This document shows positions 5,685 to 54,069 of a stretch of DNA of 54,069 nucleotides, piece after piece. Both the position numbers and the translations under genes were made by a program. The notes beneath the pieces were generated by a model that worked only from the letters and a program-made list of their open reading frames with translations, was not told the DNA's origin and ran no database searches. This DNA is from a virus. Lineage: Duplodnaviria > Caudoviricetes. The DNA lies in IMG/VR virus record IMGVR_UViG_3300036768_000196, positions 1 to 54,069 of that record, one strand, 5' to 3'. The number at the start of each line of letters is the position of its first letter. Within the stretch, counting starts at the first letter, position 1.

Positions 5685-5811
5685 AGACAGGCGTGATCCT
5701 AAGCATGAATTCAAAAAGGGACATCGTACCAAAAAACATTTTCTTAATTCTGTGAGAGATAAGGAGGCAATGGATGAAATCAGAACCGAAGTATTACAAG
5801 ATTCCCGTTGA
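5626..5811 (+). CDS. Small basic hypothetical protein (start uncertain)
   Basis: ORF bridging its neighbours. Confidence 0.5.
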   Translation: MECLTMSMKRKTEKDLLSSKDRRDPKHEFKKGHRTKKHFLNSVRDKEAMDEIRTEVLQDSR

Positions 5812-34733: not shown

Positions 34734-35309
34734 TTACTCCTGTTTAGTATGTTCTAACATCTTTGGGGTTACGTCAGTTACTTCTAACACCCTGGTCTTG
34801 TTAGCCATTTTGGCGAAGGCATCAGCAAGAGCAGTCAAGCGGTCCTGAATCTGCTGCTTTGCAGCTTCGTCTTGTGGTTTGTCATCAAGCTTGGCTTGCC
34901 TATCTAGTAATCCAGCAGCAACGTTCATGGCGTCTCTCATGACTACTGGTTTACGTTTCATTTCCCCTGTTTTCTGGTCATAGATCCAGTCACCATTCTC
35001 CAGCCTGTCCATGGTGACGTCCAGTGCCTTCTCGGCAATCTTCTTAAGCCTGTTGGACAGCTTGATAGTGTTTTCGGTACGGAGTTCGATTACAAGATCG
35101 TTCCACCACTTGGAGTATCTCCATGTCTTGACGGTATCGAATGGGATACCAAGGGAAGCAGCTACGGTAGGAAGGTTACCTACTACCATCCAGAGCTTCA
35201 CAGCTTCGAGCTTCTCTGCATCGGAGTACCAGTGTTTGACACCTTTTTCTGCCTTCCTTTTCTTTTTTGGACTAGGAAGTTTTTTAAGATTTTCTGAATC
35301 ACTTAACAT
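34734..35309 (-). CDS. Terminase small subunit (putative; HTH)
   Basis: HTH-like VAASLGIPFDTVKTWRYSKWW followed by helices; first gene of the late arm; start uncertain (35309 or 35384). Confidence 0.6.
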   Translation of the reverse strand: MLSDSENLKKLPSPKKKRKAEKGVKHWYSDAEKLEAVKLWMVVGNLPTVAASLGIPFDTVKTWRYSKWWNDLVIELRTENTIKLSNRLKKIAEKALDVTMDRLENGDWIYDQKTGEMKRKPVVMRDAMNVAAGLLDRQAKLDDKPQDEAAKQQIQDRLTALADAFAKMANKTRVLEVTDVTPKMLEHTKQE

Positions 35310-35334
35310 TTTTTTTCTAAAAATCCTCTTATCA

Positions 35335-35545
35335 AGCCAAAGAAGTTGCGGAGGATTACAGCAACTTCTTTGGCTCTTTACCAAGTCATCAGGAAGGTAC
35401 TGAAGTACCTTCCTAATGACTTGTATTGCGAAGCCTGCTCCCGAAAGGTCCCAAAAACCTTTCGGGGTAAGCAGGCTTCGCTCAATGCGAAGCCAATGGA
35501 CTTAATAGTTATTAAGTCCTTTGGCTTCGCTATAAGGCGAAGCCT
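35335..35545. repeat. Array of near-perfect inverted repeats
   Basis: 35335-35349/35361-35375, 35382-35401/35404-35423, 35429-35449/35457-35480, 35498-35506/35511-35519 and 35523-35530/35537-35544. Confidence 0.85.
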
Positions 35546-35564
35546 TATTTTTTTATAAAACGTT

Positions 35565-35593
35565 ATTATAGCATATTTTTCGAATTTTGTCAA
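35565..35593 (-). promoter_or_regulatory. sigma70-type promoter for the structural arm
   Basis: Reverse complement TTGACA-17 nt-TATAAT with TGn extension; overlapped by a 14-bp inverted repeat (35576-35609). Confidence 0.85.
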
Positions 35594-35849
35594 GTCAAAA
35601 TTCGAAAAAGGTATCCCATAAATATGGTATAATACCATATTTATGGTATAATATATCTTTTTTTATAGTTATACTATACCATTTTTATGGTATACATGCT
35701 TTTTTTGAAAATATGCGGCAGCGTGAAATGATGCCTTACGCTCCACTCATAGCTGCCGCTTTTCCCCCCACCGGGGGGTCTAATCATCGCTGCCGCATTG
35801 ATCGTGCCCGCTCTCGGCGTTGCCGATTGCATCGCGGGCACTACTGAAA

Positions 35850-35970
35850 GCATGCGAGCAGTGCTCGCGTAGATGCATGCGCTTGATCATATAAAAGCGC
35901 ATGCTTGATACATCTTTACTGTGTAAAGATGTATTCTGCATCCATCTTTTAGGTTAAAGATGGATGCTTG
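35850..35970. repeat. Second array of inverted repeats
   Basis: GCGAGCA/TGCTCGC, GCATGCGCTT/AAGCGCATGC, ATACATCTTTAC/GTAAAGATGTAT and GCATCCATCTTT/AAAGATGGATGC. Confidence 0.8.
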
Positions 35971-36132
35971 ATCTATCTTATTGATTTAAAAGGGATTTCT
36001 AGTACATCTTTTCCATACATAGACTTAGCAGCGCCGACACCGTGCGATATCGGCAAACTTTTCACCTTGTGAAATTTCTAAAACTTTTAGAACGTGCTGC
36101 GCGCAGTACCTTAAACGCGGTATAGCGCGAGC

Positions 36133-36161
36133 TTGCGTTATTGCCTAAGCCGTGCTACAAT
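36133..36161 (+). promoter_or_regulatory. Probable early sigma70 promoter
   Basis: TTGCGT-17 nt-TACAAT with TGn extension, upstream of the first + arm gene. Confidence 0.6.
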
Positions 36162-36211
36162 GCTTCTTAGATTGTGAGGTTGGCTCACAATCATCACTTG
36201 GGAGATTGACT

Positions 36212-36406
36212 ATGAAGTCTGGACGTGAGGAAATCATCCGCATTCTTATGAAACGCGACAAGCTTTCATATATGGAAGCTTTCGCGCAGTACAACGAAGG
36301 AATGAAGGCAGTGCATCGGGCATTGCTCGATGGTGATGACGTCGAAGCGGTTTTCTGCGAGGAATTCGGTCTGGAACCGGATTACCTTTTCGACGTTCTG
36401 GCATAA
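36212..36406 (+). CDS. Small early phage protein
   Basis: SD GGGAG; LMKRD...EEFGLEPDY pattern. Confidence 0.75.
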   Translation: MKSGREEIIRILMKRDKLSYMEAFAQYNEGMKAVHRALLDGDDVEAVFCEEFGLEPDYLFDVLA

Positions 36407-36426
36407 CTTACTTGGGAGAATGCACC

Positions 36427-37068
36427 ATGCAAGTCGAAATCGAAGGCAAAGGCGCGGTGAACGTTCCTGACAAGCTGGCCGCCGAAGTGCAATCGGCGGT
36501 TAAGACTACCGAAGGATCTACCGCCAAATGGCGGGATTTGTGGCCGAAGGTTGAAGACACCTTTGGCGATAACGCTTTCACGCGCGGCACGCCTGAATAT
36601 AAGGCAGTGCACCGCTTCGTGGCATCCATGCATCCCGCTTGGCGGGAAGCTCCCGAAAGGGGGGATAACTCGGATGCTGCTAACTCGGCGCGTGCGGGAC
36701 GCGCACAAGCCCTGACCGTGGCATCCGTGGCCATGTCGCTTATGGCCAAGTATCGTGCCCAACATTATAATGAGGGCGCTGAACGTGGCCCCCGGCGCAA
36801 GATTGCTTACGCTGAAAAGCGTACCCTGATCATCAAGACTATCGCCCGCTTCGCAGAAAAGGGCGATGCCCAAGCTACCGCCGACTTGGCCGCATTGCGG
36901 GCTGCTAAGGCCGACAAGCAAGCCGAAAGGATCGATGTAGCACTCGCGCAGCCCCGCACGATCGGCGCAGAGTCGCGGCAGCCGGGTCCCGTCACGGTCA
37001 CCAAGCCCGCACCCGCCAAAGCCAAGGTTCGCAAGGCCAAGGCCGAAGCCCAAACCGCCACGGCATAA
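36427..37068 (+). CDS. GC-rich early protein with Lys/Ala-rich tail
   Basis: SD GGGAG before ATG 36427; ends KPAPAKAKVRKAKAEA; terminator follows. Confidence 0.7.
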   Translation: MQVEIEGKGAVNVPDKLAAEVQSAVKTTEGSTAKWRDLWPKVEDTFGDNAFTRGTPEYKAVHRFVASMHPAWREAPERGDNSDAANSARAGRAQALTVASVAMSLMAKYRAQHYNEGAERGPRRKIAYAEKRTLIIKTIARFAEKGDAQATADLAALRAAKADKQAERIDVALAQPRTIGAESRQPGPVTVTKPAPAKAKVRKAKAEAQTATA

Positions 37069-37080
37069 CGTGGAACTCAG

Positions 37081-37110
37081 AAAGCCCGCTTAACCGCGGG
37101 CTTTTTTTTT
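37081..37110 (+). terminator. Intrinsic terminator
   Basis: AAAGCCCGC-TTAACC-GCGGGC followed by a T run; a second hairpin plus T run at about 37126-37156. Confidence 0.85.
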
Positions 37111-37252
37111 GTCCTTTGATCCTACAGCCGCGCCAGCATAGGTGCGGTTTTTTTTTATGCCCAGTTCCTCGCACTGTGACTGCGCCGAAAAAGGTCGGTC
37201 AACAAAAAGCGGCGACAAGCCCAAAGCTGCAAAACCGCTGCGGCGCGTCAAT

Positions 37253-37281
37253 TTGACATAGCCTTGGAAGTGTTGTATAAT
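37253..37281 (+). promoter_or_regulatory. sigma70-type promoter
   Basis: TTGACA-17 nt-TATAAT exact consensus. Confidence 0.9.
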
Positions 37282-37290
37282 AACAACATA

Positions 37291-37321
37291 GACTGAGAAA
37301 ACAGTCATCGTTCTTTCACAA
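37291..37321 (+). promoter_or_regulatory. boxB-like hairpin plus boxA-like antitermination element
   Basis: GACTG-AGAAAA-CAGTC then CGTTCTTTCACAA (compare boxA TGCTCTTTAACA), about 10 nt after the -10 box. Confidence 0.55.
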
Positions 37322-37364
37322 TGCAAAAATTCTAAAAGTTTTAGAAAAAGCTTTTAGAAAAAAA

Positions 37365-37930
37365 CTAGAAGGCAAGGCGCGCATGATCCTGCCCATATGG
37401 GTGCGGGAAAAGGCAAAAGCAGTTGCGCTGTATAAAAATTATTTTTAGTGCAATTGGACTGGAACGGCGTAAGGTAGGGTGCAGTTAATAAAAGCAATGC
37501 CCCACAGACAAACCGAGATTCAGTGCCGAACGACATAGACGCGACTATGGAAAGCTGGTCGGAGAGCCAGCGATGTAGTGCGAAACCTGCCTTCGAGTCA
37601 GCAGTGCTGCGGGTTGGCATCCGTGGCACTGTTGGCGAAGCGACTAGCATAAAGTCCCCAAAAGGGATGGTCCGTGCGCGGTAGGACAATCTGGTAGTGC
37701 GGAATCGGGAAATCCGATAGAGGGTCACCGCACGGTTGGCCAGAATCGCTATAGAAAATGAACCCCTCGACTCTATTCCCGGTGCTTGACCCAAACAGGC
37801 CGGAGAATCCTGCACGCAGCCTGAATAGGATTTCACTCGAATCCTCGGCGTGCCCTTCGATTCCCTGTACGGCGAAAGCACTGAAAGGAATTGAGAGCAA
37901 GGCTATCGAAGAGGTAGCCTTGTCATCAGT
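37365..37930 (+). ncRNA. Candidate large structured non-coding RNA (family unassigned)
   Basis: No + strand ORF in the track; GC-elevated; many stems with G-U pairs, long-range helices and loop-downstream complementarities. Confidence 0.65.
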
Positions 37931-37948
37931 CCCTTGAAAGGAGCCAAA

Positions 37949-38293
37949 ATGGCTATCTATATTTGTAACGAATTCTCTCTGTCTATGTTGGACAGAGAAA
38001 CCCAGCTTGAGGAAACACGAGAAGGGTGCGGGCGTGCTCCCATACCTATCAGCGCAGACACGGTGCGCCTAATGTTGAATACTGTGTGGACGCCGATTAT
38101 ATCGGCGGTAAGGCACGCCGACACTGCCAGAATCTTCTCTGTCATCCTAGGTTACCAAATCGAGGCAAACCGGGTGAGTGTTAAGCTCTACCGTGACGAT
38201 AAAGCTATCGTAGGCCTGTATGTAGGACCAAAGATTCCCAAAGGTGCTACTGCCCTCCCAGAGGGGGCAACCATCGAGTGGTGGCTAATATAA
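37949..38293 (+). CDS. DUF1874/STIV B116/YddF family protein (AcrIII-1 ring-nuclease homolog)
   Basis: NEFSLSML, ISAVRHADTA, NRVSVKL and GPKIPKGATALPEG match the family motifs NAFS, GH, NR and RLxEG. Confidence 0.8.
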   Translation: MAIYICNEFSLSMLDRETQLEETREGCGRAPIPISADTVRLMLNTVWTPIISAVRHADTARIFSVILGYQIEANRVSVKLYRDDKAIVGLYVGPKIPKGATALPEGATIEWWLI

Positions 38294-38311
38294 TTAACCT
38301 CTCTTTTCTGT

Positions 38312-38339
38312 AGTCCACCAATCGGTGGACTTTTTTTTT
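38312..38339 (+). terminator. Intrinsic terminator
   Basis: AGTCCACC-AATC-GGTGGACT followed by a T run. Confidence 0.8.
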
Positions 38340-38361
38340 CTCCAAAGAAAGGAGATTTCCA

Positions 38362-38781
38362 ATGGAAAAGAAATACGTGCTCACTGACGAAACACGGATT
38401 GTCGAAGGAAAAACCTTGTACCGCATTAAAGCGTTGCGTGATTTCGGTAACGTCAAGGCAGGGCAATTAGGTGGATGGGTTGAGAATGAATTGAACCTAT
38501 CACAACTAGGAAACTGCTGGATCGCTGATGATGCATGTGTATATGATAGAGCAACCGTATCAGACGATGCTCAGGTTAGTGATAAAGCGAACATCAAGGA
38601 ATTTGCTCACGTTTTTGAAAACGCAAAAATTTTTGGAAATGTGTATTTGAAAAATAATGTAAGGGTATTCGGAAACGCAAAAATATCTGGAAAATGTTTT
38701 TTACTTGATGAGGTACAAGTATCCGGTGATGCACATATCACCGGAAAAACATTCATCATGGGACGTGCTCTTATTTCGTAA
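38362..38781 (+). CDS. Phage hexapeptide-repeat (beta-helix) protein
   Basis: KYVLT...LYRIKALRDFG.VKAG.LGGWVE.E.NLSQ.GNCW plus VxxNAx repeats. Confidence 0.8.
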   Translation: MEKKYVLTDETRIVEGKTLYRIKALRDFGNVKAGQLGGWVENELNLSQLGNCWIADDACVYDRATVSDDAQVSDKANIKEFAHVFENAKIFGNVYLKNNVRVFGNAKISGKCFLLDEVQVSGDAHITGKTFIMGRALIS

Positions 38782-39544: not shown

Positions 39545-39621
39545 GGGCCGTTAGCTTAATCGGTTAGAGCAGCCGACTCATAATCGGCGGGTTACAGGTT
39601 CGAATCCTGTACGGCCCACCA
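39545..39621 (+). tRNA. tRNA with CAT anticodon, probably tRNA-Ile2 (lysidine)
   Basis: Full cloverleaf; GGGCCGT/ACGGCCC acceptor stem; anticodon loop CTCATAA; TTCGAAT T-loop; encoded CCA; C4-G69 and C5-G68 pairs typical of TilS substrates. Confidence 0.93.
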
Positions 39622-40908: not shown

Positions 40909-41559
40909 ATGTGCTACCTGTATACATCCACAAAAGATAAACCTATGCACTTCGTTGAGCGTATCTGTGCTGGAGGTGTCTTTGGGAATTTGGTGAAAGA
41001 AAAGAAATTAAAGTATGTAGGTTTCAAGAACAAATTTATCTCGGAAAGGCATAATGTCATTGTCGATTGGCTCGAAACAATAGAAAAAGCATTTGAAATA
41101 AAAGTTATAAAAATAGAACAAGCCGACGAAGAACCTGAATTTGAAGACGTGAAAAAGAAAAAATTCAATGGTTATGTATGGGAATTTCCTGAACATAACT
41201 ACAAATGGAACATTATGCACTTGGCTGTGCTGTTAGCCAGACAGCCAGTGGAAAATGAATCCAGTGTAGGAATAAAAAACGAAAATAATGTCAAAAATCC
41301 ACTGAGACTTACAGGAGAAAAACCTAAAGATCCTTTAGGTAAATTTCTTGTCCTGACAAACGAAGAATTGTTTGATCGTGCTGCTGTACACGGATTATCA
41401 CTCTTTAACTTCGCAAGAAGTGCAAAAGGATACAGTTTACACTCATTCAAGCTTGATAAAGCGATCGAAGATCTTAGGAATAAAACGGATATGCTTATAA
41501 ATGATGCAGCAAATTTGGGTGTAATTTTTGCCGGTTATTCTCCAAGAAAAGGACAATAA
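40909..41559 (+). CDS. Hypothetical protein
   Basis: 216-aa ORF leading into the ligase cluster. Confidence 0.65.
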   Translation: MCYLYTSTKDKPMHFVERICAGGVFGNLVKEKKLKYVGFKNKFISERHNVIVDWLETIEKAFEIKVIKIEQADEEPEFEDVKKKKFNGYVWEFPEHNYKWNIMHLAVLLARQPVENESSVGIKNENNVKNPLRLTGEKPKDPLGKFLVLTNEELFDRAAVHGLSLFNFARSAKGYSLHSFKLDKAIEDLRNKTDMLINDAANLGVIFAGYSPRKGQ

Positions 41560-41560
41560 A

Positions 41561-42124
41561 ATGTCTGCACTGTTTTTATGGGGAGGTGAAGACATTTCCC
41601 CATCCCTATACGGACAAAAACCTGTGCATACCAATGCACCGGCTAAACCTTCTCAACGTGACTTAAAAGAGATCAAGCTAATCAATGAAGCTGTAAAAAG
41701 TCAACGTCCTATTATCGGCATCTGTCGTGGCGCTCAACTTCTTTGTGTAATTCACGGCGGAAAACTTTGGCAGCATGTAGAAAAGCATGCCGGCACTGTT
41801 CCGCATGAACTAGAATTAAAGCTAAAAGATGGAGTAGAAAAAGTTTATTCTAACTCCACACATCATCAGATGATGATCCCTGACGAGGATGCAGAAATCA
41901 TCGCTACTACTACAGAACCTTTGTATCCTTACCGATGGAGTGAAGACAAAAATCCTGTAAAGGTAGTGGATAAAGATGTCGAAATTCTGTATCTACCTAG
42001 ACTAAACGCGCTTGCAATTCAGGCACATCCAGAATGGATGCCAAAGAATTGCAAATTCAACCAAATGCTTCGTCAACTTGTAGAGGAGAAATTCAATGGT
42101 GAAGTATCCCTCCCTTGGCTGTGA
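41561..42124 (+). CDS. Class I glutamine amidotransferase/peptidase C26
   Basis: GGEDI.P.LYG, GICRGAQ and QAHPE catalytic triad. Confidence 0.9.
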   Translation: MSALFLWGGEDISPSLYGQKPVHTNAPAKPSQRDLKEIKLINEAVKSQRPIIGICRGAQLLCVIHGGKLWQHVEKHAGTVPHELELKLKDGVEKVYSNSTHHQMMIPDEDAEIIATTTEPLYPYRWSEDKNPVKVVDKDVEILYLPRLNALAIQAHPEWMPKNCKFNQMLRQLVEEKFNGEVSLPWL

Positions 42125-42884
42125 TCCGGAATGGTTCCTTCAAACCGAAGATGGAAAAGTAGTCTCAGCAATTGGAAAGATCGGAGGCACCAAGCAAGAA
42201 CCTCGTGTTTTGTTTACTGAGAAAATCCGAGGAAAAGAATTCCCTTTTTGCGTTCAGGAAGACAACGTCCTGCTTGAATACAACATCCCACCAGCTACAT
42301 GCAAAAGTGAGTGGCTCGATTTCAATCTGCTAATCCAAAGCAAGATTAAAGAGGAACTTCAAAAACAGGGGCTTAAGCCACTCATCGTTCCTTCTTATAT
42401 CATGCCAAAAGAGGAGATGAATAATCCGTTCGCTTGGGTATTTGGGTGCGATCCTGATTACAACGCATGGACACGTAAACCAAATCCTAATCCAGCATCA
42501 CAAAACAAGTTCCTTAGGTCTGCTGGAGGACATATCCACATTGGATTCAAGGGAAACAAAGAGGACAAGATACGGTTCGTGAAACTACTGGACCTTTTCC
42601 TAGATGCACCTTTGATGCTAATGGATAAGGATCGGCGCAGGCAGGAGCTTTACGGTAGACCGGGTGCGTTCCGATTCAAGCCGTATGGTCTAGAATACAG
42701 GACGCCAAGTAATTTCTGGACGCAGAGTTTGCAGACAATGGAGATGGTATACAACTGCGTCATGACGGCTTGGGAAAACTTCTACAAGTTAGAAGTTCCT
42801 GATGAAGTTCAGCAGATTCTCCTGCGAGGAAATGACGAAGAAATCTCTGAGATGGTAAATAAATATGTATACTCATCCCTATAA
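42096..42884 (+). CDS. phiEco32-like COOH-NH2 ligase type 2
   Basis: LGCDPE.F, QEDNV..E, GCDPDYNAW, RSAGGHIHIG and EYRTPSNFW. Confidence 0.9.
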   Translation: MVKYPSLGCDPEWFLQTEDGKVVSAIGKIGGTKQEPRVLFTEKIRGKEFPFCVQEDNVLLEYNIPPATCKSEWLDFNLLIQSKIKEELQKQGLKPLIVPSYIMPKEEMNNPFAWVFGCDPDYNAWTRKPNPNPASQNKFLRSAGGHIHIGFKGNKEDKIRFVKLLDLFLDAPLMLMDKDRRRQELYGRPGAFRFKPYGLEYRTPSNFWTQSLQTMEMVYNCVMTAWENFYKLEVPDEVQQILLRGNDEEISEMVNKYVYSSL

Positions 42885-43416
42885 ACCTCAGTTTAATCTC
42901 CCAGTGAATGGAGATTCAATTAATGATCTCGTAAGAAAATGGGGAGACTCTTTTTCTTGTGTTTATACCGATAAAGAATTTCTATTCGGATTCATCTCAT
43001 CTTTAGATGATTTAATAGTAAATTTGTGGAAAAAGGATGGCGGAAAGTTTTTATCAACAAAGGCAAAACCAACTTATTTCTATTTTCCATCGTGTTTATT
43101 TCCACACAGTAACTACATATATTTCCTACAAAGGAAAAACGAAAATGTATTCAAAGTAGGAATCAGTTCATTAAACTATAATCTCTTTTATTACGATAAA
43201 AGAGAAAAGAAATTTCTATATGATTCGGTAGAAGGTAATCCCGCATTATTCAGTTATGCTTCATTCATCACTAGCGGAATGGAGCATGAAAACATATGTG
43301 GTAATTTCTGTTATATTGACGGAAAACTTTTCTATAAAAATGATGAAGTTTCCCCTAGACTATTTCATTTAGTTCCTAAATTCATTCTCAACAAGTGGGG
43401 ACTAAAATGCCCATAG
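42865..43416 (+). CDS. Hypothetical protein
   Basis: AT-rich ORF inside the ligase cluster. Confidence 0.6.
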   Translation: MYTHPYKPQFNLPVNGDSINDLVRKWGDSFSCVYTDKEFLFGFISSLDDLIVNLWKKDGGKFLSTKAKPTYFYFPSCLFPHSNYIYFLQRKNENVFKVGISSLNYNLFYYDKREKKFLYDSVEGNPALFSYASFITSGMEHENICGNFCYIDGKLFYKNDEVSPRLFHLVPKFILNKWGLKCP

Positions 43417-44219
43417 TTTATGAAATTTATAGCCACGCTGAGGATGTAGAAACAAAATTGTATCCTCAGATCGAATATGGAAGGAAAAAATTTCCCGGAT
43501 TGAAAACCTATATGGGGTGGGTGTCTAACCCAATAGGTATTGAAATTGAAATAGAGGGATACAAATTCATTGACCCAATGCTGAAAAATGAACCACTCTT
43601 CTACTGGAAGACGATAAAGGATGGTTCTTTAAGGGATGGAATAGAGTTCTGCTCGATTCCCCTTGTCAGCAGCGGAATTGATTATGCATTGGCAGAAATC
43701 GAGCCATTCCTTGCCCAATGCAGAGTTTCTCACAGAACCGGGATTCACGTTCACAATAATGTTTCAAGGCTAACAAAAGAAAAACTTTATCTTCTGTTTG
43801 CATATTATATTCTTTTTGAAGAAGAATTCTTTGGATTCGTAGATCCTTTAAGAAAAGCAAATCCTTATTGTGTTCCTGTAATTGGACTTGATGTAGGAAT
43901 CTCCCCGAAGAAATACTTTGCTTTTGACATGATGGAATCACTAAATAACTACAGGACAGTAGAATTCCGTCATTTGGAAACAACCCATGATGTAAGGAAA
44001 ATACGGAGGTTTTTACAACTTGTAACAAAGCTGCATAGGTTCATTCATATCAATGAAGTTAAAAAGCTTATAAACATTTTGAACTCGATTGAAGATCAAT
44101 CAGAATATGAAAAGCTTTTAGACAAAGTCTTCGGTAAAACAGCCAGCTTCTTGAAAAAAACTCTCTGCCCAGACAATCTGTTTTATGCTAGGTTCATAGC
44201 ATATAAACTCTCCCGCTGA
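43407..44219 (+). CDS. Putative amidoligase (COOH-NH2 ligase)
   Basis: IGIEIEIE, DGSLR..IEF, RTGIHVH and TVEFRH. Confidence 0.85.
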   Translation: MPIVYEIYSHAEDVETKLYPQIEYGRKKFPGLKTYMGWVSNPIGIEIEIEGYKFIDPMLKNEPLFYWKTIKDGSLRDGIEFCSIPLVSSGIDYALAEIEPFLAQCRVSHRTGIHVHNNVSRLTKEKLYLLFAYYILFEEEFFGFVDPLRKANPYCVPVIGLDVGISPKKYFAFDMMESLNNYRTVEFRHLETTHDVRKIRRFLQLVTKLHRFIHINEVKKLINILNSIEDQSEYEKLLDKVFGKTASFLKKTLCPDNLFYARFIAYKLSR

Positions 44220-44226
44220 GACAAAA

Positions 44227-45456
44227 ATGTGCGGAATTTACGGAATCATTTCAAAGAACGGAACGGAGATCAACAAAGATGCCCTATATCAAATGGGGCT
44301 TCTTTCTGCATTACGGGGCACTGACAGCACCGGGCTATGCCTAATCAAAAAGAATGGTGATGCTCGAATCATCAAAACTATTGGCCCTGTAATGAACCTG
44401 TATTATGAAAAGGGCTGGAAAAAATTCGAAGAAGAATTTAAAGATGCAGTAGCAGTGTTTGGTCACTGCCGTTATGCCACCGTCGGAGATGTAGATAAAA
44501 AGAATGCACAGCCTCTTGTAAATGGCAACCTGATTCTATTGCATAACGGAACACTTACAGCAGTCAAAACAGAAAAAGGAGAATCAGACTCTACTGTTTT
44601 CTGTAAGAAAATAAAGGAAATGGGAGTGAAGGATGCCGTAAAATCTACCGCAGGTTCTATGGCAATCGTTACGTATGACTTGAATGACAAGAAAGTTACT
44701 TTCTACAGGAATTATCAAAGGCCATTATCGTATGCAAACACACAAAACTTTATTTATGTAATGTCAGAAAGGTCTGCTTTAGAGTATCTGTTTACCAGAA
44801 ATAATATCAGATTCGATGATAAATCTGACTTCGATGGTTATACTTTATATCATTTGGATATTAATAATCCTGCTGCTGGAATAGAAAAAGGTGATGATCT
44901 TTATGTCTCTGTAACAAGAAGGGAAAGCCATACAAATTTTTTTCCAGTTTTTGGAAAAGGTTTTTGGAATGACCTTTCCCCTCATTACAAGGAAGGTGGA
45001 GAAATAAACTTCATCGTTGAAAGCTTGTTTGAAAGTTCACAGAAAGGACAATATGTCTATATGTGCAGCGATGAAGATAACAGGCGTATTTTCTTTAAGA
45101 CAGACAAGAAGATTGATTCATTACTAGGTAAGATTGGAACAGGAGAATGTTGCAGCGTAGTAAAACATAACAACAGCTTCATGTATCAAGTAAAATACCG
45201 GACCATCAAATGGGATGATGAAAAACCAGACGACGATGAAGATGAAGTAGTCACTCTGGATGAATTAATTCCAAGAAAACAGTGGCTTGAGCTAGTCAAG
45301 AAAGAAGAATGCTCTGGCTGCAATAGGTCAATTCTCCTTGATGAGCATTACAACACGATGGTTTGGGAAGATGTAAAAGGGAAATGGCATCTCCTTTGCG
45401 GAGATTGTTATAATCGTAGCACTCCAGTTGCAAGTAACGAAAGGGTATTCACATGA
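44227..45456 (+). CDS. Class II (Ntn) glutamine amidotransferase with a C-terminal Cys-rich region
   Basis: MCGIYG, RGTDSTG, GHCRYAT, HNGT and DS; C-terminal CSGC...CGDC. Confidence 0.9.
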   Translation: MCGIYGIISKNGTEINKDALYQMGLLSALRGTDSTGLCLIKKNGDARIIKTIGPVMNLYYEKGWKKFEEEFKDAVAVFGHCRYATVGDVDKKNAQPLVNGNLILLHNGTLTAVKTEKGESDSTVFCKKIKEMGVKDAVKSTAGSMAIVTYDLNDKKVTFYRNYQRPLSYANTQNFIYVMSERSALEYLFTRNNIRFDDKSDFDGYTLYHLDINNPAAGIEKGDDLYVSVTRRESHTNFFPVFGKGFWNDLSPHYKEGGEINFIVESLFESSQKGQYVYMCSDEDNRRIFFKTDKKIDSLLGKIGTGECCSVVKHNNSFMYQVKYRTIKWDDEKPDDDEDEVVTLDELIPRKQWLELVKKEECSGCNRSILLDEHYNTMVWEDVKGKWHLLCGDCYNRSTPVASNERVFT

Positions 45457-46184
45457 TTATCGTACCATATAGTTGGCATTCCAAGTCTGTATGGAAACTG
45501 GCAGAAGAGCTGAATTTCTGGCTAGTATCCAGAAAAGAAATGGTTACCGAAAAAGGAATCAATTGGGGATGTAGCAAATTATGGATTGAAAACCCAGGTC
45601 TGGTGCTAAATAAGGATTATGCAGTTGAACGCGCAGTGTTTAAGAAAAAGTTATATTCCATTCTAGAACAGAATGGTATTCCTGCCGTAGAAAGCACAGA
45701 CGACAAAGAAGTAGCAAAAAGATGGCTTGACGAAGACAACATCGTATTTGCAAGAAAAGACGGATTGTCAAAAGGCAAAGGAATCAAAATCTTACATCAA
45801 GGAGATGAAGTACCCGAAGCAGACTTCTATACAAAATATATCCAAAAGAGAAAAGAGTTTAGGATCCATTGCACTAAATTCGACGTGTTCGATATAACCC
45901 AGAAGAAGCGAAAGCGGGATGAAAAACAAAATGAATTCATTAGAAACAGAAAGAATGGATGGATCTTTGCCAGACAAGATCTAAAGATCCCTAACAATAT
46001 TGAGGATCTGGCACTTAAAACAATTAAAGCACTAGAGCTTGATTTTGGTGCAGTAGATATAATCTATGATCTGGATGCAAAAAAGTTAAAGGTGCTGGAA
46101 GTAAATACTGCGCCGGGTCTGGAAGGGACTACCCTTCTTAAATATGTAGAAATGTTCAAAAACCATCCTCACTTTGCGGAGTAA
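45453..46184 (+). CDS. ATP-grasp ligase (RimK-like)
   Basis: INWG, GKGI, EFRIH, LDFGAVDII and LEVNTAPG. Confidence 0.9.
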   Translation: MIIVPYSWHSKSVWKLAEELNFWLVSRKEMVTEKGINWGCSKLWIENPGLVLNKDYAVERAVFKKKLYSILEQNGIPAVESTDDKEVAKRWLDEDNIVFARKDGLSKGKGIKILHQGDEVPEADFYTKYIQKRKEFRIHCTKFDVFDITQKKRKRDEKQNEFIRNRKNGWIFARQDLKIPNNIEDLALKTIKALELDFGAVDIIYDLDAKKLKVLEVNTAPGLEGTTLLKYVEMFKNHPHFAE

Positions 46185-46457: not shown

Positions 46458-47176
46458 TGGCCCATTTTGTAAGACATGAAAGATGCGAACGGTGCGCCGA
46501 AATCGGAAATGACCGATCAGGAGACAACAAAGCCGTCTACTCAGACGGAAGCTCCTACTGTTTTGCTTGTGGCAAATACCAGCCTCCCGATAGCTGGTTT
46601 CATATTAGTGAAAGAACCGAACGGAGAAATTACGACATTGGTCCTACAAAGGCCCTCCCTAGTGATTACATGAACTACTACTTAGGGTTTCTACCTAGGG
46701 ACATTATCGTACGTAATTTTACGTATAGCCCCAAGCTCAATAGATCGGTATTTACCTACACCGATCCAGAAACCCAAGAAACGTTCGTAGAGGCACGATC
46801 TCTGTCGGATAAGCCCAAGGTATTATCCCTTGGAAAAAAACCGCTCCTAGTGGCTAAAAATGGCGTTTGCGGGCATTTTAACGAATGGGATGAATTGGTA
46901 CTTGTCGAAGACCTTGTTTCCGCCTTGAAGGTAAGTATTATTACGTATGCCATGCCCTTGTTCGGTTCCGTGATCCCCCAACGGAACTTTAACTGGATTT
47001 TTCAGTCTAAGGGCAAGTCGGTCCTTGTTTGGCTTGATCCAGACAAGCTAACCGAAGCGGTGCGTATGGTCTTTAGACTGTCGAACATAGGGAAAAGTTC
47101 CCGAGTCATACCCTCGGAAAGGGATCCCAAATGCTACGACATCTTTACCATCAAAAAGATCCTATACCAAAAATAA
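46457..47176 (+). CDS. DNA primase (Zn ribbon plus TOPRIM)
   Basis: HERCERC...YSDG..YCFAC; LVED..SA; VWLDPD. Confidence 0.88.
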   Translation: MAHFVRHERCERCAEIGNDRSGDNKAVYSDGSSYCFACGKYQPPDSWFHISERTERRNYDIGPTKALPSDYMNYYLGFLPRDIIVRNFTYSPKLNRSVFTYTDPETQETFVEARSLSDKPKVLSLGKKPLLVAKNGVCGHFNEWDELVLVEDLVSALKVSIITYAMPLFGSVIPQRNFNWIFQSKGKSVLVWLDPDKLTEAVRMVFRLSNIGKSSRVIPSERDPKCYDIFTIKKILYQK

Positions 47177-47180
47177 GGTA

Positions 47181-47209
47181 TTGACAAAATTCCCGTTTTG
47201 TGGTATAAT
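47181..47209 (+). promoter_or_regulatory. sigma70-type promoter
   Basis: TTGACA-17 nt-TATAAT with TGn extension. Confidence 0.9.
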
Positions 47210-47214
47210 ACGCA

Positions 47215-47465
47215 CTTCAAAACTGGAAAAAGTTTTGCGTCAGGGCGCGTTAGCTAATACCCGGACCGCGGGGGTACCCAGGACAGCGGTAGACGGACAC
47301 TAGCCGAAAGGCACCGGTGCAACTCCGCATGGTGAGCCGTCCGACTGGTTGAATCGGCAAGTCGGGGGACTAGGGAGTGCCATGCCCTAGCATGCCGATC
47401 CCGTTAACTCGGGGCAGGAACCTACCTCTCCTTATACCCTGTCGTGGGGTAGGGGGAGGTTTTGG
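47215..47465 (+). ncRNA. Candidate structured ncRNA or attenuator leader (about 250 nt)
   Basis: GC-rich non-coding island after the promoter; multiple stems, a GNRA loop, a pseudoknot pairing and a terminal hairpin plus TTTT. Confidence 0.6.
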
Positions 47466-47551
47466 CAGGAACTTTATGAATTCTTATGTCATAAGTCAAG
47501 AAAAAATTGAACTTTTAGAAAAATCTCTTGTCTAATGGAGATATAACCAAA

Positions 47552-47743
47552 ATGAAACTACCATACGGATTCCACGAAGTTATTATCGACGAATATGATC
47601 CACGAGTGAGATATCCTCGCCGCCGTGCCAAGGCGTGGCGTGATGCGATGAAACCCGGCAAATGCCGGTCTCTCACCAAAGAAGAGATAAAAGAACTATA
47701 TGGTGCAGAGTTCCTTGCTGAAAGCACTCCTAAAGAAGGATAA
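47552..47743 (+). CDS. Small hypothetical protein
   Basis: SD GGAG; MKLPYGFHEV... Confidence 0.6.
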   Translation: MKLPYGFHEVIIDEYDPRVRYPRRRAKAWRDAMKPGKCRSLTKEEIKELYGAEFLAESTPKEG

Positions 47744-50139: not shown

Positions 50140-51261
50140 ATGACTAAGAAAATTCTTACAATAGATACTGAAAACACCATCTACAACAAAGGGAATCCAT
50201 TCGATACCAGAAACATCAATGTATGTGTTGCATATAAATTCGATGATGATGAGGGTGTATTGTTTCATGACAAGAAGTCATTGGAAGAAAAAATAAACAA
50301 GGCAGATCTTCTTGTATTTTTTAACGCAAAGTACGATCTTCATTGGCTTAGGAAACTGGATATAGACATCAAGAACAAACCCATCTGGTGCTGTCAACTG
50401 TTCGAGTTTATCCACAATAGGATGCAGAACCCATATCCGTCACTAGATGGTGTGTGCGAAAAGTATGGACTTGGCTCAAAGATCGATGTCATCGAAAAAG
50501 AGTATTGGAACAATGGGATAAATACTGACAAGATTCCCAAGGAAGTTCTGGCAGAGTATGCTTTACATGATGTGAGACTTACTTATGAGCTTTACAAGAA
50601 ACAAATGAGTGTAATGCGACCACATCAGGCAAAGCTGATGATGATCTCAATGGCAGATCTGAAAGTACTTGCTGAAATGGAATGGAATGGAATTCACTTT
50701 GACATAGAAAAAGCAAAAGAAAAAGAAAAAGAAGTTGATGACAAGATTAAGGAGATACAGGACAAGCTTTCTATTCATCACAACATTCCCAACTTCAATT
50801 GGAATTCTAACGAGCACCTTTCTGCTTTACTTTATGGTGGCGATCTTACTTTCACCGTTAAAGTTCCTGATGGGGTGTATAAGTCAGGACAGAAAAAAGG
50901 ACAACTTAAGCTTAGGAATGAGGAAGTAACTTATACACTTCCAAGGAAATTCACTCCAGTCAAAGGATCAGAACTCAAAAAGCCAGGTTTCTGGTCAGTA
51001 GATGAAACTTATCTTTTGAAACTCAAAGGAGGGGATCGAGAACTCATTGACAGTATCCTTAAGATAAAGGAATTGACCAAGCTAAAGACAACCTACTATG
51101 AGGGATTTCGAAAGCTGTATGAGGAAATGAACTGGAAAGATAACCTTTTGCATACGACTTTTACTCAGGTAGTGGCAAGGACAGGTAGGCTTTCAAGCAA
51201 ATCCCCGAACATACAAAATCTTTCAGATGAAGCACAACAGCTTATTACGACAAGATGGTAA
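50140..51261 (+). CDS. Family A DNA polymerase, N-terminal part (3'-5' exonuclease plus thumb)
   Basis: ExoI DTE, ExoII FNAKYD, ExoIII YALHD; ends TGRLSSKSPNIQNL. Confidence 0.9.
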   Translation: MTKKILTIDTENTIYNKGNPFDTRNINVCVAYKFDDDEGVLFHDKKSLEEKINKADLLVFFNAKYDLHWLRKLDIDIKNKPIWCCQLFEFIHNRMQNPYPSLDGVCEKYGLGSKIDVIEKEYWNNGINTDKIPKEVLAEYALHDVRLTYELYKKQMSVMRPHQAKLMMISMADLKVLAEMEWNGIHFDIEKAKEKEKEVDDKIKEIQDKLSIHHNIPNFNWNSNEHLSALLYGGDLTFTVKVPDGVYKSGQKKGQLKLRNEEVTYTLPRKFTPVKGSELKKPGFWSVDETYLLKLKGGDRELIDSILKIKELTKLKTTYYEGFRKLYEEMNWKDNLLHTTFTQVVARTGRLSSKSPNIQNLSDEAQQLITTRW

Positions 51262-51443
51262 AACAAACCGATTCGATATACTACACCATTCTGAGACTGA
51301 AAGATCACATGGATAACGATGAGCTTTCTCATCTTATCTCGGAGATGGAATCAGTTTATCCTGATCTATTCGAGGAGCTAAGAAAGAAGATTACGTTCAA
51401 GCAGATGTCAAGACAGATCCCTGCTCTTTTGAAAAAGCAATAA
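51255..51443 (+). CDS. Small hypothetical protein between the polymerase halves
   Basis: 62-aa ORF overlapping or abutting both polymerase ORFs. Confidence 0.6.
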   Translation: MVKQTDSIYYTILRLKDHMDNDELSHLISEMESVYPDLFEELRKKITFKQMSRQIPALLKKQ

Positions 51444-51444
51444 G

Positions 51445-52173
51445 ATGTATGTGCAATGTGATGCATCTCAATTGGAATGGCGAGTTCTTAACTGGCTGGC
51501 TAATGATCCAGTAGGTCTTCGTGAGCTTAATGAGGAAATAGATGTTCATTCGGCGAATCAAAAGGCATTTAATCTACCAACGAGACTTATCTCCAAAAAG
51601 TACCTATTTCGTACTATTTACCGCGGCTCTGGCTGGAGTTTCGCTAATGATCCTGATTTTATGGGCGTTTCTGATGATCCTGACTTTTGGGATGAAATAA
51701 ACAGGAAGTTCTATGACAAGTACAAAGGAATTGACAAGTACCATAGAAACCTTGCAGATCTGGTTATAAGAAACAAGCCTATTTGCTCACCACTTGGCCG
51801 TGAATGGCTAGTTGGACTAAAAGAGAACGGAATGATTCCGTGGACAGTCTTGACTAATTATCCAGTGCAGGGTACTGGAAATGATCTTCTGGCAATAACA
51901 AGAATAAGCCTAAGAAAGAACATGAATGAAAAAAAGATGCGGTCCCTTCTGGTATCTACTGTCCACGATTCGATCGTTGCTGATTGCCCTGAGGAGGAAG
52001 CAAAAGATGTAGCCAACCTCATGTACGATGTATTTGACATTTACCTTCCGAAGAATGTGAAGGCTATCTGGAATATAGACTTGCCATGCAAGTTTCCATG
52101 CGAGGTTAAAATTGGTCCTAACCTCAAGGACATGGATAAATACCAAAAACAGGGTATTGACAGGCAGGACTGA
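51445..52173 (+). CDS. Family A DNA polymerase, C-terminal catalytic part
   Basis: Motif A DASQLEWR, motif B RLISKKYLFRTIY, motif C VHDS. Confidence 0.92.
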   Translation: MYVQCDASQLEWRVLNWLANDPVGLRELNEEIDVHSANQKAFNLPTRLISKKYLFRTIYRGSGWSFANDPDFMGVSDDPDFWDEINRKFYDKYKGIDKYHRNLADLVIRNKPICSPLGREWLVGLKENGMIPWTVLTNYPVQGTGNDLLAITRISLRKNMNEKKMRSLLVSTVHDSIVADCPEEEAKDVANLMYDVFDIYLPKNVKAIWNIDLPCKFPCEVKIGPNLKDMDKYQKQGIDRQD

Positions 52174-52204
52174 ATTGGATATAATATAGACAAAGAGGAT
52201 AGAG

Positions 52205-52732
52205 ATGTTAATCGAGATCAAACAGGTATCTACGAAGAATGTAGTCAAAGGTAGAAACAAATACACCCAAATGGATGTAAGTTACCACAACCTGGACAAA
52301 AACCGGGAAGAGGGTAAAAAATCCTTGATGTCATTTACTACTGAGCAGGCTACATGGAATGCCCTTTCAAATGCAAAACAGGGTGAAGTATACAAGGTAA
52401 AAGCACAGAAAAACGACAAAGGGTTTTGGGACTGGGTAGAAGCAGTCAAGGAGGAAACTAACCAGATGGTTCAAGGAAAGCCTATTCCTGTATCGACACG
52501 TCCAAACTATGAGACGGCTGATGAACGTGCCCGTAGGCAGGTTTATATTATCCGTCAAAGCTCTATTGCATCTGCAATCGAGTATTATAAAGACCAAGGC
52601 AAGCGACCTAAAGTAGAAGAAGTTCTGGCTCTTGCCAAGGTATTCGAGAACTATGTGATGTCGGAAGACGACAATAATGAGGTAACTCCCAAGGATACTT
52701 GGGAAGTTGCTGATGAAGCGGAGATTAAATAA
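52205..52732 (+). CDS. Duplicate of 693-1220
   Basis: Identical translation. Confidence 0.8.
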   Translation: MLIEIKQVSTKNVVKGRNKYTQMDVSYHNLDKNREEGKKSLMSFTTEQATWNALSNAKQGEVYKVKAQKNDKGFWDWVEAVKEETNQMVQGKPIPVSTRPNYETADERARRQVYIIRQSSIASAIEYYKDQGKRPKVEEVLALAKVFENYVMSEDDNNEVTPKDTWEVADEAEIK

Positions 52733-52756
52733 TAAAGTCATCTTAGGCAAACTCAA

Positions 52757-53548
52757 ATGAAGTGTGAATCCTTCAAGAGAAATGCCAAATCCGTAAAAGA
52801 GCTACTTGCCTCTATCAGGAATGGTAAGTTCACGCTAGATGGAAGAAATCTTATTGTTCGTGGCAACCTTTCACTTAAAAATTTGGGATTAACTTCTCTT
52901 CTTGGTTGCCCAAAATATGTTGGTGGTGAATTTAACTGTTCAGGTAATGAGTTAAAAACATTAGAAGGGTCACCACAAAAAGTTGGTAGTTTTGATTGCA
53001 GCTTCAACGACTTAATTTCTCTTGAAGGCGGACCTCGAAAAGTAGAATACAGGTACGATTGCAGTGACAACAGGCTAAAAACACTTGAAGGTGCGCCACC
53101 AAAAGTTGGTAGTTTTGACTGTTCTCGCAACAACCTTCAAACATTGAAAGGCGGACCACAGGAAGTAGGTACCTACTTTATTTGCGACTACAATAAGCTC
53201 GAAACGCTGGATGGAGGACCTGTTAAGGTAGGAGCTACTTATAGCTGTAGCAATAATAAGTTAATCTCTCTTAAGGGTGCACCACGGGTAGTTGGCTACA
53301 ATTTTTATTGTAGACAAAACAAGCTATCTTCGTTAGAAGGTTGTCCTCGTACCATTGGCGGTAGTTTATACTGTGAAAAAAATAAACTTCTTACTTCACT
53401 TGAAGGAGGCCCACGTTATATTGTTGAGGATGTTTATTTGTATGGTTGTCCTAACTTAATCTCTATTGAGAATTTTCATCTTTACTTGCCTAAAGTACTC
53501 GGCAAATTTTATTTCAAAAAAAGGAGGTTTGTATGTACTATAAAGTAG
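52757..53548 (+). CDS. Duplicate of the LRR-like protein 1245-2036
   Basis: Identical translation. Confidence 0.8.
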   Translation: MKCESFKRNAKSVKELLASIRNGKFTLDGRNLIVRGNLSLKNLGLTSLLGCPKYVGGEFNCSGNELKTLEGSPQKVGSFDCSFNDLISLEGGPRKVEYRYDCSDNRLKTLEGAPPKVGSFDCSRNNLQTLKGGPQEVGTYFICDYNKLETLDGGPVKVGATYSCSNNKLISLKGAPRVVGYNFYCRQNKLSSLEGCPRTIGGSLYCEKNKLLTSLEGGPRYIVEDVYLYGCPNLISIENFHLYLPKVLGKFYFKKRRFVCTIK

Positions 53549-53765
53549 TTCGTAATGGAGTAACTGTAGCAAAGGGGTTTTCTAACTACGAGAAGGCACG
53601 TCAATTCTTGCGTAAACTTCTACGTAAGAAAGATCCGATTCGTGTGAACCGTCAGCCAGACCCGCTTTCTGCTTTCCTTTTCGGCTACGAAATCGTTCGA
53701 GTTGACAAATAATAGATGACATGGCCTCCCCGCAAGGGGAGGCTTTTCCTGACAAGGAATTACAG

Positions 53766-54069
53766 ATGTTGTGCCTTATTGATGGCGACATTGTAGCTTA
53801 CAGATGCGCAGCTTCCTGCGAACCAACGAAAGAAAAACATGAGCGAGATCCCCTTGACATCGCAATTGCAAGAGCAGATTCCCTCTTATACCGCATCGTT
53901 AGTGACACTCAATCTACTGAATATCGGCTCTTTATATCAGGCACTGGAAATTTTAGAAAAAAGCTCTATCCGCAGTACAAAGCTAATCGTGAACATTTAC
54001 CACGACCAGTATGGCTTGACGAACTTCGTAAATTTCTGGTTGAAGAATGGAAAAGTGAAGTCACTTCCG
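53766..54069 (+). CDS. 5'-3' exonuclease, partial duplicate of 2254-3021
   Basis: Same sequence, truncated at the window end. Confidence 0.8.
   Translation, partial: MLCLIDGDIVAYRCAASCEPTKEKHERDPLDIAIARADSLLYRIVSDTQSTEYRLFISGTGNFRKKLYPQYKANREHLPRPVWLDELRKFLVEEWKSEVTS

Follow-up and report, generated by a model that had tools for sequence, protein, structure and literature searches.

What does the GC-rich DNA between the primase and helicase genes of a tailed phage from a microbial mat do? The question is raised by IMG/VR virus record IMGVR_UViG_3300036768_000196, a complete virus record of 54,069 base pairs (bp) with a GC content of 43.2%, which was analyzed here over its whole length ("the window"). 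On its plus strand, the primase stop codon lies 4 nucleotides (nt) ahead of the -35 hexamer of a sigma70-type promoter at 47181. This promoter is followed by about 250 nt of GC-rich non-coding sequence (hereafter, the island), which ends in a hairpin with a short T tract, and then by a small open reading frame (ORF) of 63 amino acids (aa), a DnaB-like helicase gene, and a DNA polymerase gene. We tentatively favor the reading, to which we give somewhat short of an even chance, that the island would be the 5' leader of the replication operon, in which a weak terminator would yield both a ~250-nt RNA and a read-through messenger RNA (mRNA).

Promoter sites were defined by a -35 TTGACA and a -10 TATAAT separated by a spacer of 16 to 18 nt, and the site at 47181 agrees with this definition throughout. 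Five perfect sites were found in the window against ~0.02 expected, four of them distinct (645, which is the same site as 52157; 37253; 47181; and 35593 on the minus strand). The exact promoter that an earlier, sequence-only reading of this DNA had placed just past the primase stop codon is therefore present and real beyond chance. In an Alcaligenes phage (locus L042), a promoter TTGACT-17-TGTTATAAT at 5780 overlaps the primase stop codon; a TATATA-rich gap of 104 nt with 12% GC separates it from the helicase gene. At locus L003, whose helicase is 44.5% identical, TTGACA-17-TACAAT at 2929 stands ~30 nt ahead of the helicase, which starts at about 2986. At a further locus, L043, the primase and helicase genes overlap, with no such promoter at the junction. 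A second promoter, after the polymerase gene, is kept in both the window (52157) and L042 (10193). Since L042 and L003 carry a helicase promoter at the same position, the window promoter would serve the helicase/polymerase operon; judged from these comparisons, it is the ancestral promoter of that operon.

The promoter spacer holds an inverted repeat (ACAAAA-6-TTTTGT). More generally, two CAAAA...TTTTG inverted repeats are seen, one in the promoter spacer (47185-47201) and one at about +3 to +22 (47218-47237), with unequal spacing. These repeats could be protein operators instead of RNA hairpins, and the one at 47218-47237 may be either a 5' stem-loop of the RNA or a DNA operator.

Downstream of the promoter, the GC content is 0.61 (over 47225-47374 and over 47300-47449; the stretch of about 47215-47463 is 61-66% GC) versus 0.33-0.49 in the flanks, and no frame open for more than 53 codons lies mainly inside the island, in agreement with the GC-rich non-coding region described in the sequence-only reading. 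The non-template strand carries an excess of G over C (skew of +0.17 at 47225-47374). A promoter-driven non-coding transcript on the plus strand would be the natural reading of this arrangement. Three other ways of accounting for the sequence were tried and rejected. A frame of 47-52 codons across the terminal hairpin (47374-47535) lacks a ribosome-binding site, and in the related contig described below, indels that are not multiples of three shift where it ends. A pseudogene remnant was considered for a minus-strand frame, which shares only DLPIQPV with a DUF3310 gene and carries stop codons. For a group I intron in a split primase-helicase gene, there is no Rfam match, the primase has its own stop codon, and the helicase is complete, as the helicases of relatives begin at residues 1-6 of the window helicase.

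The island ends in a hairpin of 15 pairs, predicted at -24.0 kcal/mol on the plus strand (z of -3.28) versus -15.6 kcal/mol on the minus strand; being dependent on G-U pairs and stronger on the plus strand, it fits a plus-strand RNA. The GC-rich stem and short loop are those of an intrinsic terminator. The tract behind the stem (TTTT, then GGCAGG) fails the rule of the terminator scan, which asks for at least 5 T in the 8 positions after the stem, and the site is absent from the scan list. The clear terminators of the genome carry T9 tracts (37079, 37126, and 38312), so that with four U residues only, termination would be expected to be leaky. No plus-strand promoter between 47210 and 47700 was listed by the promoter scan, and the terminator-like element thus stands between the promoter and the first ORF, at 47552, with no listed promoter in between, as in an attenuator leader. 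A conserved TTGAAC...TCTAAT stretch has a -10 without A at its second position, and its last T is lost in locus L002. The hairpin, its TTTT, and the flanking direct repeat GGCAGGAAC are all as the sequence-only reading had described them. Exact copies of GGCAGGAAC occur in the window only at 7254, 47413, and 47464, and the 42-nt unit between the last two, which contains the terminal hairpin, resembles a duplication or insertion scar.

One other record with the island was found, the viral contig behind loci L002, L020, and L044, whose helicase is 97% identical. This contig ends inside the island, and the comparison covers the 3' 149 nt only. Over this length, the 6-nt loop of the terminal hairpin holds the only two changes (47442 and 47444), versus 255 differences in 3,150 positions (~8%) of helicase and polymerase coding DNA in the same pair (binomial P value for the island, 3e-4). 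The conserved block ends ~15 nt past the U tract. Behind it, divergence starts at 47481 and reaches ~14%, with 9 substitutions and 27 indel columns in 47470-47619, including a 25-nt insertion; the composition of this spacer is kept in L002, and its sequence is not. The 63-aa protein on the far side is 100% identical at L044 on the same contig, with three nucleotide differences from L002, all synonymous. A strongly diverged spacer between two conserved modules makes a single recent transfer block unlikely. In the contigs of two DNA sequencing runs, listed variants amount to 0.7% in the promoter and island versus ~5% in the adjacent primase and helicase segments, and one of them, C47269U, would leave G-U in place of a predicted G-C pair. 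L003, L042, L043, and the other helicase-bearing loci have no GC-rich non-coding gap and no nhmmer match to the island. The insertion is specific to the lineage of the window, which has gained, downstream of the promoter and ahead of the helicase, ~250 nt of non-coding GC-rich sequence together with the 63-aa ORF. A function for the island is probable.

Collectively, the absence of a listed promoter between hairpin and helicase and a U tract of four residues only make a leader with a leaky or conditional terminator the most economical reading. Under this reading, the phage would be lytic and dependent on host RNA polymerase. The consensus sigma70 promoter would first transcribe the GC-rich non-coding RNA, and the strong hairpin with its four U residues would end this RNA at ~47463 in some transcripts. 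Polymerases stopping at the hairpin would release a short, probably stable RNA, while those reading through would make the mRNA for the 63-aa ORF, the helicase, and the polymerase. The island would then act in cis as an attenuator or checkpoint, with a factor or signal perhaps tuning read-through, and the 5' stem-loop may also stabilize the RNA. Among the functions that the sequence-only reading had offered, an attenuator of the helicase and polymerase genes fits best; in L042 and L003, the promoter directly drives the helicase.

Several observations speak against such a leader. Read-through from upstream genes is a possible source of helicase mRNA, and dependence of the operon on the promoter is presumptive. 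The near-total invariance of 149 nt exceeds what a simple terminator needs. In the run contigs, the 5' 372 nt of the primase gene have no listed variants, so low diversity is not unique to the island and the run-contig evidence is weaker than the pairwise comparison with L002; one variant of run X2, U47433C, would disrupt a U-A pair in the stem of the terminal hairpin unless a second change makes up for it, as a further difference in the run-X2 contig over 47303-47472 would do if located at 47451. In constrained folding, blocking the 3' arm of the hairpin costs the fold ~15 kcal/mol and no obvious competitor appears, that is, no convincing antiterminator alternative was found. A homologue of Xp10 p7 was not found (best tblastn E value, 1.5), and the PHROG names returned for 63 scanned window ORFs do not include an antiterminator. 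Lastly, both runs carrying the island sequence are DNA runs, from microbial-mat metagenomes.

The sequence-only reading had also proposed an elaborate fold for the island. Each of its sequence elements was located, and the fold itself was not supported. The minimum free energy (MFE) of the 255-nt fold is -100.2 versus -96.1 ± 5.1 in dinucleotide shuffles (z of -0.81; 43 of 200 shuffles were as good), and Rfam gives no match, so that a ribozyme-like or pseudoknotted complex fold finds no support. The two complementary segments of the proposed pseudoknot exist, and perfect 7-nt complementary pairs in the island number 2 versus 2.55 expected, so that the pseudoknot is unremarkable and no evidence by itself. 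Similarly, the sequence for the three-way junction is present, and the junction is kept by the centroid structure only; the MFE structure differs, and the junction is unstable in the ensemble. Taken singly, the hairpins picked by eye have z scores of -1.4 to -3.3. By pair probability, the robust local elements are the 5' hairpin, hairpin B (47341-47365), the CCCG/CGGG hairpin, and the terminal hairpin. A sponge for CsrA/RsmA, another function suggested at the time, finds no support: GGA occurs 9 times versus 6.5 ± 1.75 expected (56 of 500 shuffles at least as high), 2 of the 9 motifs lie in predicted hairpin loops, and no CsrB/Rsm match was found in Rfam. The longer motif CAGGA is present in three copies versus 0.36 expected, a count reached in none of 500 shuffles.

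Searches against known families and records returned little. At the gathering score, Rfam finds only a tRNA-Met at 39545 in the whole window. With E values up to 10 on 47150-47560, the only match is RAGATH-32 (14.4 bits versus a gathering score of 41.8; E value, 0.74), which runs across the 3' arm of the hairpin and the spacer and was rejected as noise, and a known riboswitch finds no support in these scans. ARAGORN likewise lists only the tRNA-Met (39545-39621) and no tRNA or transfer-messenger RNA (tmRNA) in the island. No match to the island region was found by blastn among 50,697 phage records, a 46-nt hairpin-B query gave only chance matches of 17-29 nt in the phage records, and the window holds no paralogue of the island. 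Scanning viral contigs with the helicase gave 17 loci, with the RNA in the L002 contig only; the primase found 0 relatives there, and the 63-aa ORF found the L002 contig only. One island 18-mer and one 20-mer had 0 matches each in the viral contigs, and a second 18-mer matched the L002 contig and two unrelated contigs. Among metagenome contigs, 20 helicase loci were found; their identity does not exceed 49%, and nhmmer detected the RNA in none of them. An exact 18-mer search of one representative genome per prokaryotic species gave 18 matches without flanking similarity or an Rfam family, which were put down to chance, and none of 400 genomes from a single bacterial class matched in a BLAST-type search. 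From these searches, the island would belong to no described sequence family.

In two unrelated GC-rich viral contigs, the strand opposite the coding strand of a DUF3310 gene (Pfam E value, 4e-12) matches hairpin B (47342-47363) exactly over 22 nt (L019, 1998-2019) and 20 nt (L021, 2000-2019), such that the predicted RNA would be perfectly antisense to the mRNA. The similarity does not extend, no cultured phage shares the match, and by estimate about one to two chance 18-mer matches are expected in such a collection. The match is probably due to chance, though four extra matching bases are unusual.

A rival explanation is that the island specifies a stand-alone, trans-acting phage small RNA (sRNA), an RNA "moron" complete with promoter and terminator, and that read-through into the helicase is incidental. 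We consider this rather unlikely, and the same goes for its supposed targets, which would be transcripts or proteins of the host or of competitors, with the RNA acting, for example, in host takeover, in anti-defense, or as a sponge. The layout is indeed self-contained, consisting of promoter, non-coding body, and hairpin with four U residues, and the conserved block stops shortly after the U tract with a variable insertion slot directly behind it, as is typical of independent cassettes. The sequence itself, and not structure alone, is invariant over 149 nt, and the excess of CAGGA and the perfect antisense match of hairpin B to DUF3310 point the same way. However, four U residues make a short tail for an sRNA of the enterobacterial type that is stable and efficiently terminated, GGA motifs are not enriched overall, and complementarity to the phage's own genome is not beyond chance (best match of 13 nt; E value, 0.24). 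The lack of extension or of a cultured-phage copy and the expected number of chance matches weaken the DUF3310 argument, and a promoter ancestral to the helicase operon cannot be dedicated to the RNA alone. The island might instead be inert, a GC-rich remnant of foreign DNA inserted in a 5' untranslated region (5'UTR), with low diversity reflecting recent spread by recombination and not selection. Its absence from every other relative examined, a composition foreign to a 43% GC genome, the scar-like 9-nt direct repeat around the terminal hairpin, the ordinary fold energy, and the low-diversity blocks in coding DNA of the same population all agree with this explanation, which we nevertheless regard as quite unlikely. 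One transfer block does not explain a diverged spacer between the island and an equally conserved 63-aa ORF, the only two substitutions in L002 both fall in a hairpin loop, a useless strong structure would presumably be costly at a highly transcribed position, and no source was found in either the species-representative genomes or the 400 genomes of the single class.

We give still less credence to a replication-origin element, in which transcription would activate or prime DNA synthesis and the GC-rich hairpins would perhaps be single-strand initiation signals beside an AT-rich region of unwinding; this is improbable. Its appeal lies in the location of the island between the primase and helicase genes, in the G-over-C skew, in the AT-rich spacer (GC of 0.33) that follows and whose composition is kept in L002, and in the TATATA-rich tract behind the L042 promoter. 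Yet the cumulative GC skew turns only with gene orientation (at about 8 kb and about 35-36 kb) and has no inflection at 47 kb, there are no iterons beyond one 9-nt repeat, and insertions of varying sequence between the RNA end and the AT-rich part argue against a tightly spaced origin. AT-rich 5'UTRs are ordinary, and the parallels with T7 and ColE1 are analogies drawn from general background. A last possibility, likewise improbable, is that the island founds a new class of phage regulatory RNA, either a ligand- or factor-sensing or put-like, RNA-polymerase-modifying leader that would gate the replication genes or an RNA that would prime or activate an origin between primase and helicase. Such a class is compatible with the near-invariance of the 149 nt and with the strand specificity of the G-U hairpin. 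The coordinates of the features at the junction are compiled below.

Table. Features of the primase-helicase junction, with coordinates in the 54,069-bp window
Feature	Position	Strand	Details
DNA primase gene, 239 aa	46457..47176	+	PHROG phrog_47/239/22173, E 5e-8 to 3e-6; 30% identity to vB_Af_QDWS535 primase
Sigma70-type promoter, extended -10 TG	47181..47209	+	TTGACA 47181-86, 17-nt spacer, TG 47201-02, TATAAT 47204-09 (TGgTATAAT); 12/12
Predicted non-coding transcript, ~250 nt	about 47214..47463	+	start predicted 5-8 nt after -10; end predicted at U4 tract
5'-proximal hairpin CAAAACU-GGAAAA-AGUUUUG	47218..47237 (arms 47218-24/47231-37)	+	pair probability at least 0.88; -5.7 kcal/mol, z -2.4
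Proposed three-way junction	47292..47341	+	GACGG 47292-96/CCGUC 47337-41 closing GAAA hairpin and UGCAACU hairpin; z -1.69
GCC-GAAA-GGC hairpin	47303-12	+	present in sequence
CGG-TGCAACT-CCG	47315-27	+	present in sequence
Hairpin B, CCGACU-G-GUUG-AAU-CGGC-A-AGUCGG	47341..47365 (arms 47341-46/47360-65)	+	pair probabilities at least 0.76; -12 kcal/mol, z -2.75; invariant in L002
Proposed pseudoknot partners ATCGGCA / TGCCGAT	47353-59 / 47393-99	+	present in sequence
CTAGGG/CCCTAG	47370-75/47385-90	+	present in sequence
Hairpin CCCG-UUAACU-CGGG	47400..47413	+	pair probability at least 0.94; z -2.16
Direct repeat GGCAGGAAC, copy 1	47413..47421	+	just 5' of terminal hairpin; kept in L002
Terminator-like hairpin	47424..47463	+	stem 47424-47460: 12 bp, one-base bulge, 3 bp; 6-nt loop; three G-U pairs; then UUUU
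Direct repeat GGCAGGAAC, copy 2	47464..47472	+	just 3' of U tract
AT-rich variable spacer	47476..47551	+	holds conserved site AACTTTTAGAAAAATC (about 47510-47525) and ribosome-binding site of 63-aa ORF
Conserved 63-aa basic ORF, first gene after island	47552..47743	+	no Pfam or PHROG family
DnaB-like replicative helicase, 410 aa	47700..48932	+	phrog_19, E 1e-52; Pfam DnaB_C, AAA_25; then small ORFs, split family-A DNA polymerase

Directly behind the island lies a hypervariable slot (47480-47503), where at least five different sequences are joined in run X2; loose ends at this slot reach up to 255 nt, and one starts with a possible small ORF. The low GC of the region (0.33) was measured over 47450-47599. 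The 63-aa ORF, which lies between the island and the helicase, had been missed by the sequence-only reading, and its protein gave no usable match in an Atlas look-up. A half-site, CTTTTAGAAAAA, occurs just ahead of its ribosome-binding site (47510-47525), where it is conserved in L002 amid the diverged spacer, and again at 37349-62; the spacer shares it with 37339-37362. A perfect palindrome, TTCTAAAANTTTTAGAA, is present twice, upstream of a 64-aa ORF at 36212 (36076-36092) and ~45 nt past the predicted start of promoter 37253 (within 37330-37362). CTTTTAGAAAAA/TTCTAAAANTTTTAGAA is a candidate operator or translational-repressor site.

A second layout of a similar kind is found at 37253-38340, where promoter 37253 is followed by a ~660-nt leader, a 114-aa gene (Pfam STIV_B116-like; E value, 6e-7), and a canonical hairpin with a T9 tract at 38312. 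This succession of promoter, leader, gene, and terminator suggests terminator-gated expression; it also resembles an early gene followed by its terminator. The leader has GC-rich parts and no plus-strand ORF of 80 aa or more, and it is probably the RNA that the sequence-only reading had counted as the first of two. No motif is common to the island and the 37282-38345 leader except CTTTTAGAAAAA and AAAAGTTTT, and Rfam at E values up to 1 gave nothing relevant on 35300-38400. On the minus strand, the late-operon leader past promoter 35593 (35420-35560) contains several hairpins built on GCGAAGCC/GGCTTCGC.

By PHROG and Pfam scans of its ORFs, the window belongs to a tailed phage of lytic type. 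Its minus strand encodes structural, packaging, and lysis functions at about 8.5-35.4 kb, and the plus strand carries early and replication genes, comprising an amidoligase/GATase/ATP-grasp cluster, primase, DnaB-like helicase, split family-A DNA polymerase, exonuclease, and ribonucleotide reductase. The PHROG names obtained for the 63 scanned ORFs include neither an integrase nor a phage RNA polymerase. Among cultured phages, the closest relative found is Alcaligenes phage vB_Af_QDWS535 (54.5% identity in the terminase, 30% in the primase, and 41% in the helicase), with which the window has in common the gene order GATase, ATP-grasp, primase, helicase, and split polymerase. The Xanthomonas Xp10 group is among the more distant primase relatives (Xp10 primase, 27% identity). 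Upstream of the primase, 41528-46184 holds glutamine amidotransferase, COOH-NH2 ligase, amidoligase, Gn_AT_II, and RimK-like ATP-grasp genes, the GATase/ATP-grasp order being the same as in the Alcaligenes phage. The family-A polymerase (50140-52173) is split in two, one part of 373 aa with the exonuclease and the first portion of the polymerase domain and another of 242 aa, with 183 nt and a small ORF of ~44 codons between them; the Alcaligenes phage polymerase (L042, 8281-10196) is likewise annotated as two coding sequences. The ends of the record are an exact terminal repeat of 2,557 bp (1-2557 = 51513-54069), which spans the end of the polymerase gene, promoter 645/52157, and two ORFs. The repeat is rather long to be an overlap from assembly and may be a genuine terminal redundancy.

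If the leader does gate the expression of helicase and polymerase, the island would be an RNA-level checkpoint on replication in the Xp10/Alcaligenes-phage-like group, for which Xp10 p7 is already an example of unusual control over termination by host RNA polymerase, and an orphan sequence family would join the small set of phage RNAs derived from 5'UTRs. Short of a demonstrated structured RNA, the island is a clean candidate for transcript mapping.

In size and GC-rich hairpin content, the predicted RNA is like structured non-coding RNAs (ncRNAs) in Rfam generally; unlike the riboswitches, CsrB/Rsm sponges, group I introns, 6S RNA, tmRNA, and phage motifs of that database, it has no match at the gathering score. 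The primary origin of T7 consists of promoters followed by an AT-rich tract, and ColE1 RNA II is a pre-primer. The island might be likened to both in having a promoter by replication genes and a structured, G-rich transcript followed by an AT-rich tract; the skew at the island is uninformative, however, and its distance to the AT-rich part differs within the population. Among phage leaders, HK022 put offers an analogy for a leader that modifies RNA polymerase, and the lambda pR'-tR' "6S" leader combines a strong constitutive promoter with a short terminated leader and an operon that needs read-through. The operon of the window is one of replication and not of late genes, unlike that behind pR'-tR', and its leader is larger and more GC-rich. 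In Xp10, to which the window phage is distantly related by its primase, p7 is reported to control termination by host RNA polymerase through antitermination of intrinsic terminators (PMC6624301, PMC4513864). The lambda and p7 systems share with the window a strong promoter, a short terminated leader, and an operon behind it; they differ in that the window has neither a recognized Q-like protein nor, where searched for, a p7 homologue. In Pseudomonas phages, an ONT-cappable-seq report lists 42 terminators in 5'UTRs and 29 ncRNA candidates and describes premature 5'UTR termination that yields abundant short RNAs of <250 nt beside full-length mRNAs (PMC10914365). Those short RNAs, mostly of unknown function, were seen as transcripts, whereas the RNA of the window is predicted from its DNA. 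No sequence relationship is expected, and the lineage of the window phage is other than theirs. The likeness is one of layout, with a terminator lying ahead of the first gene and no more than ~250 nt behind a promoter.

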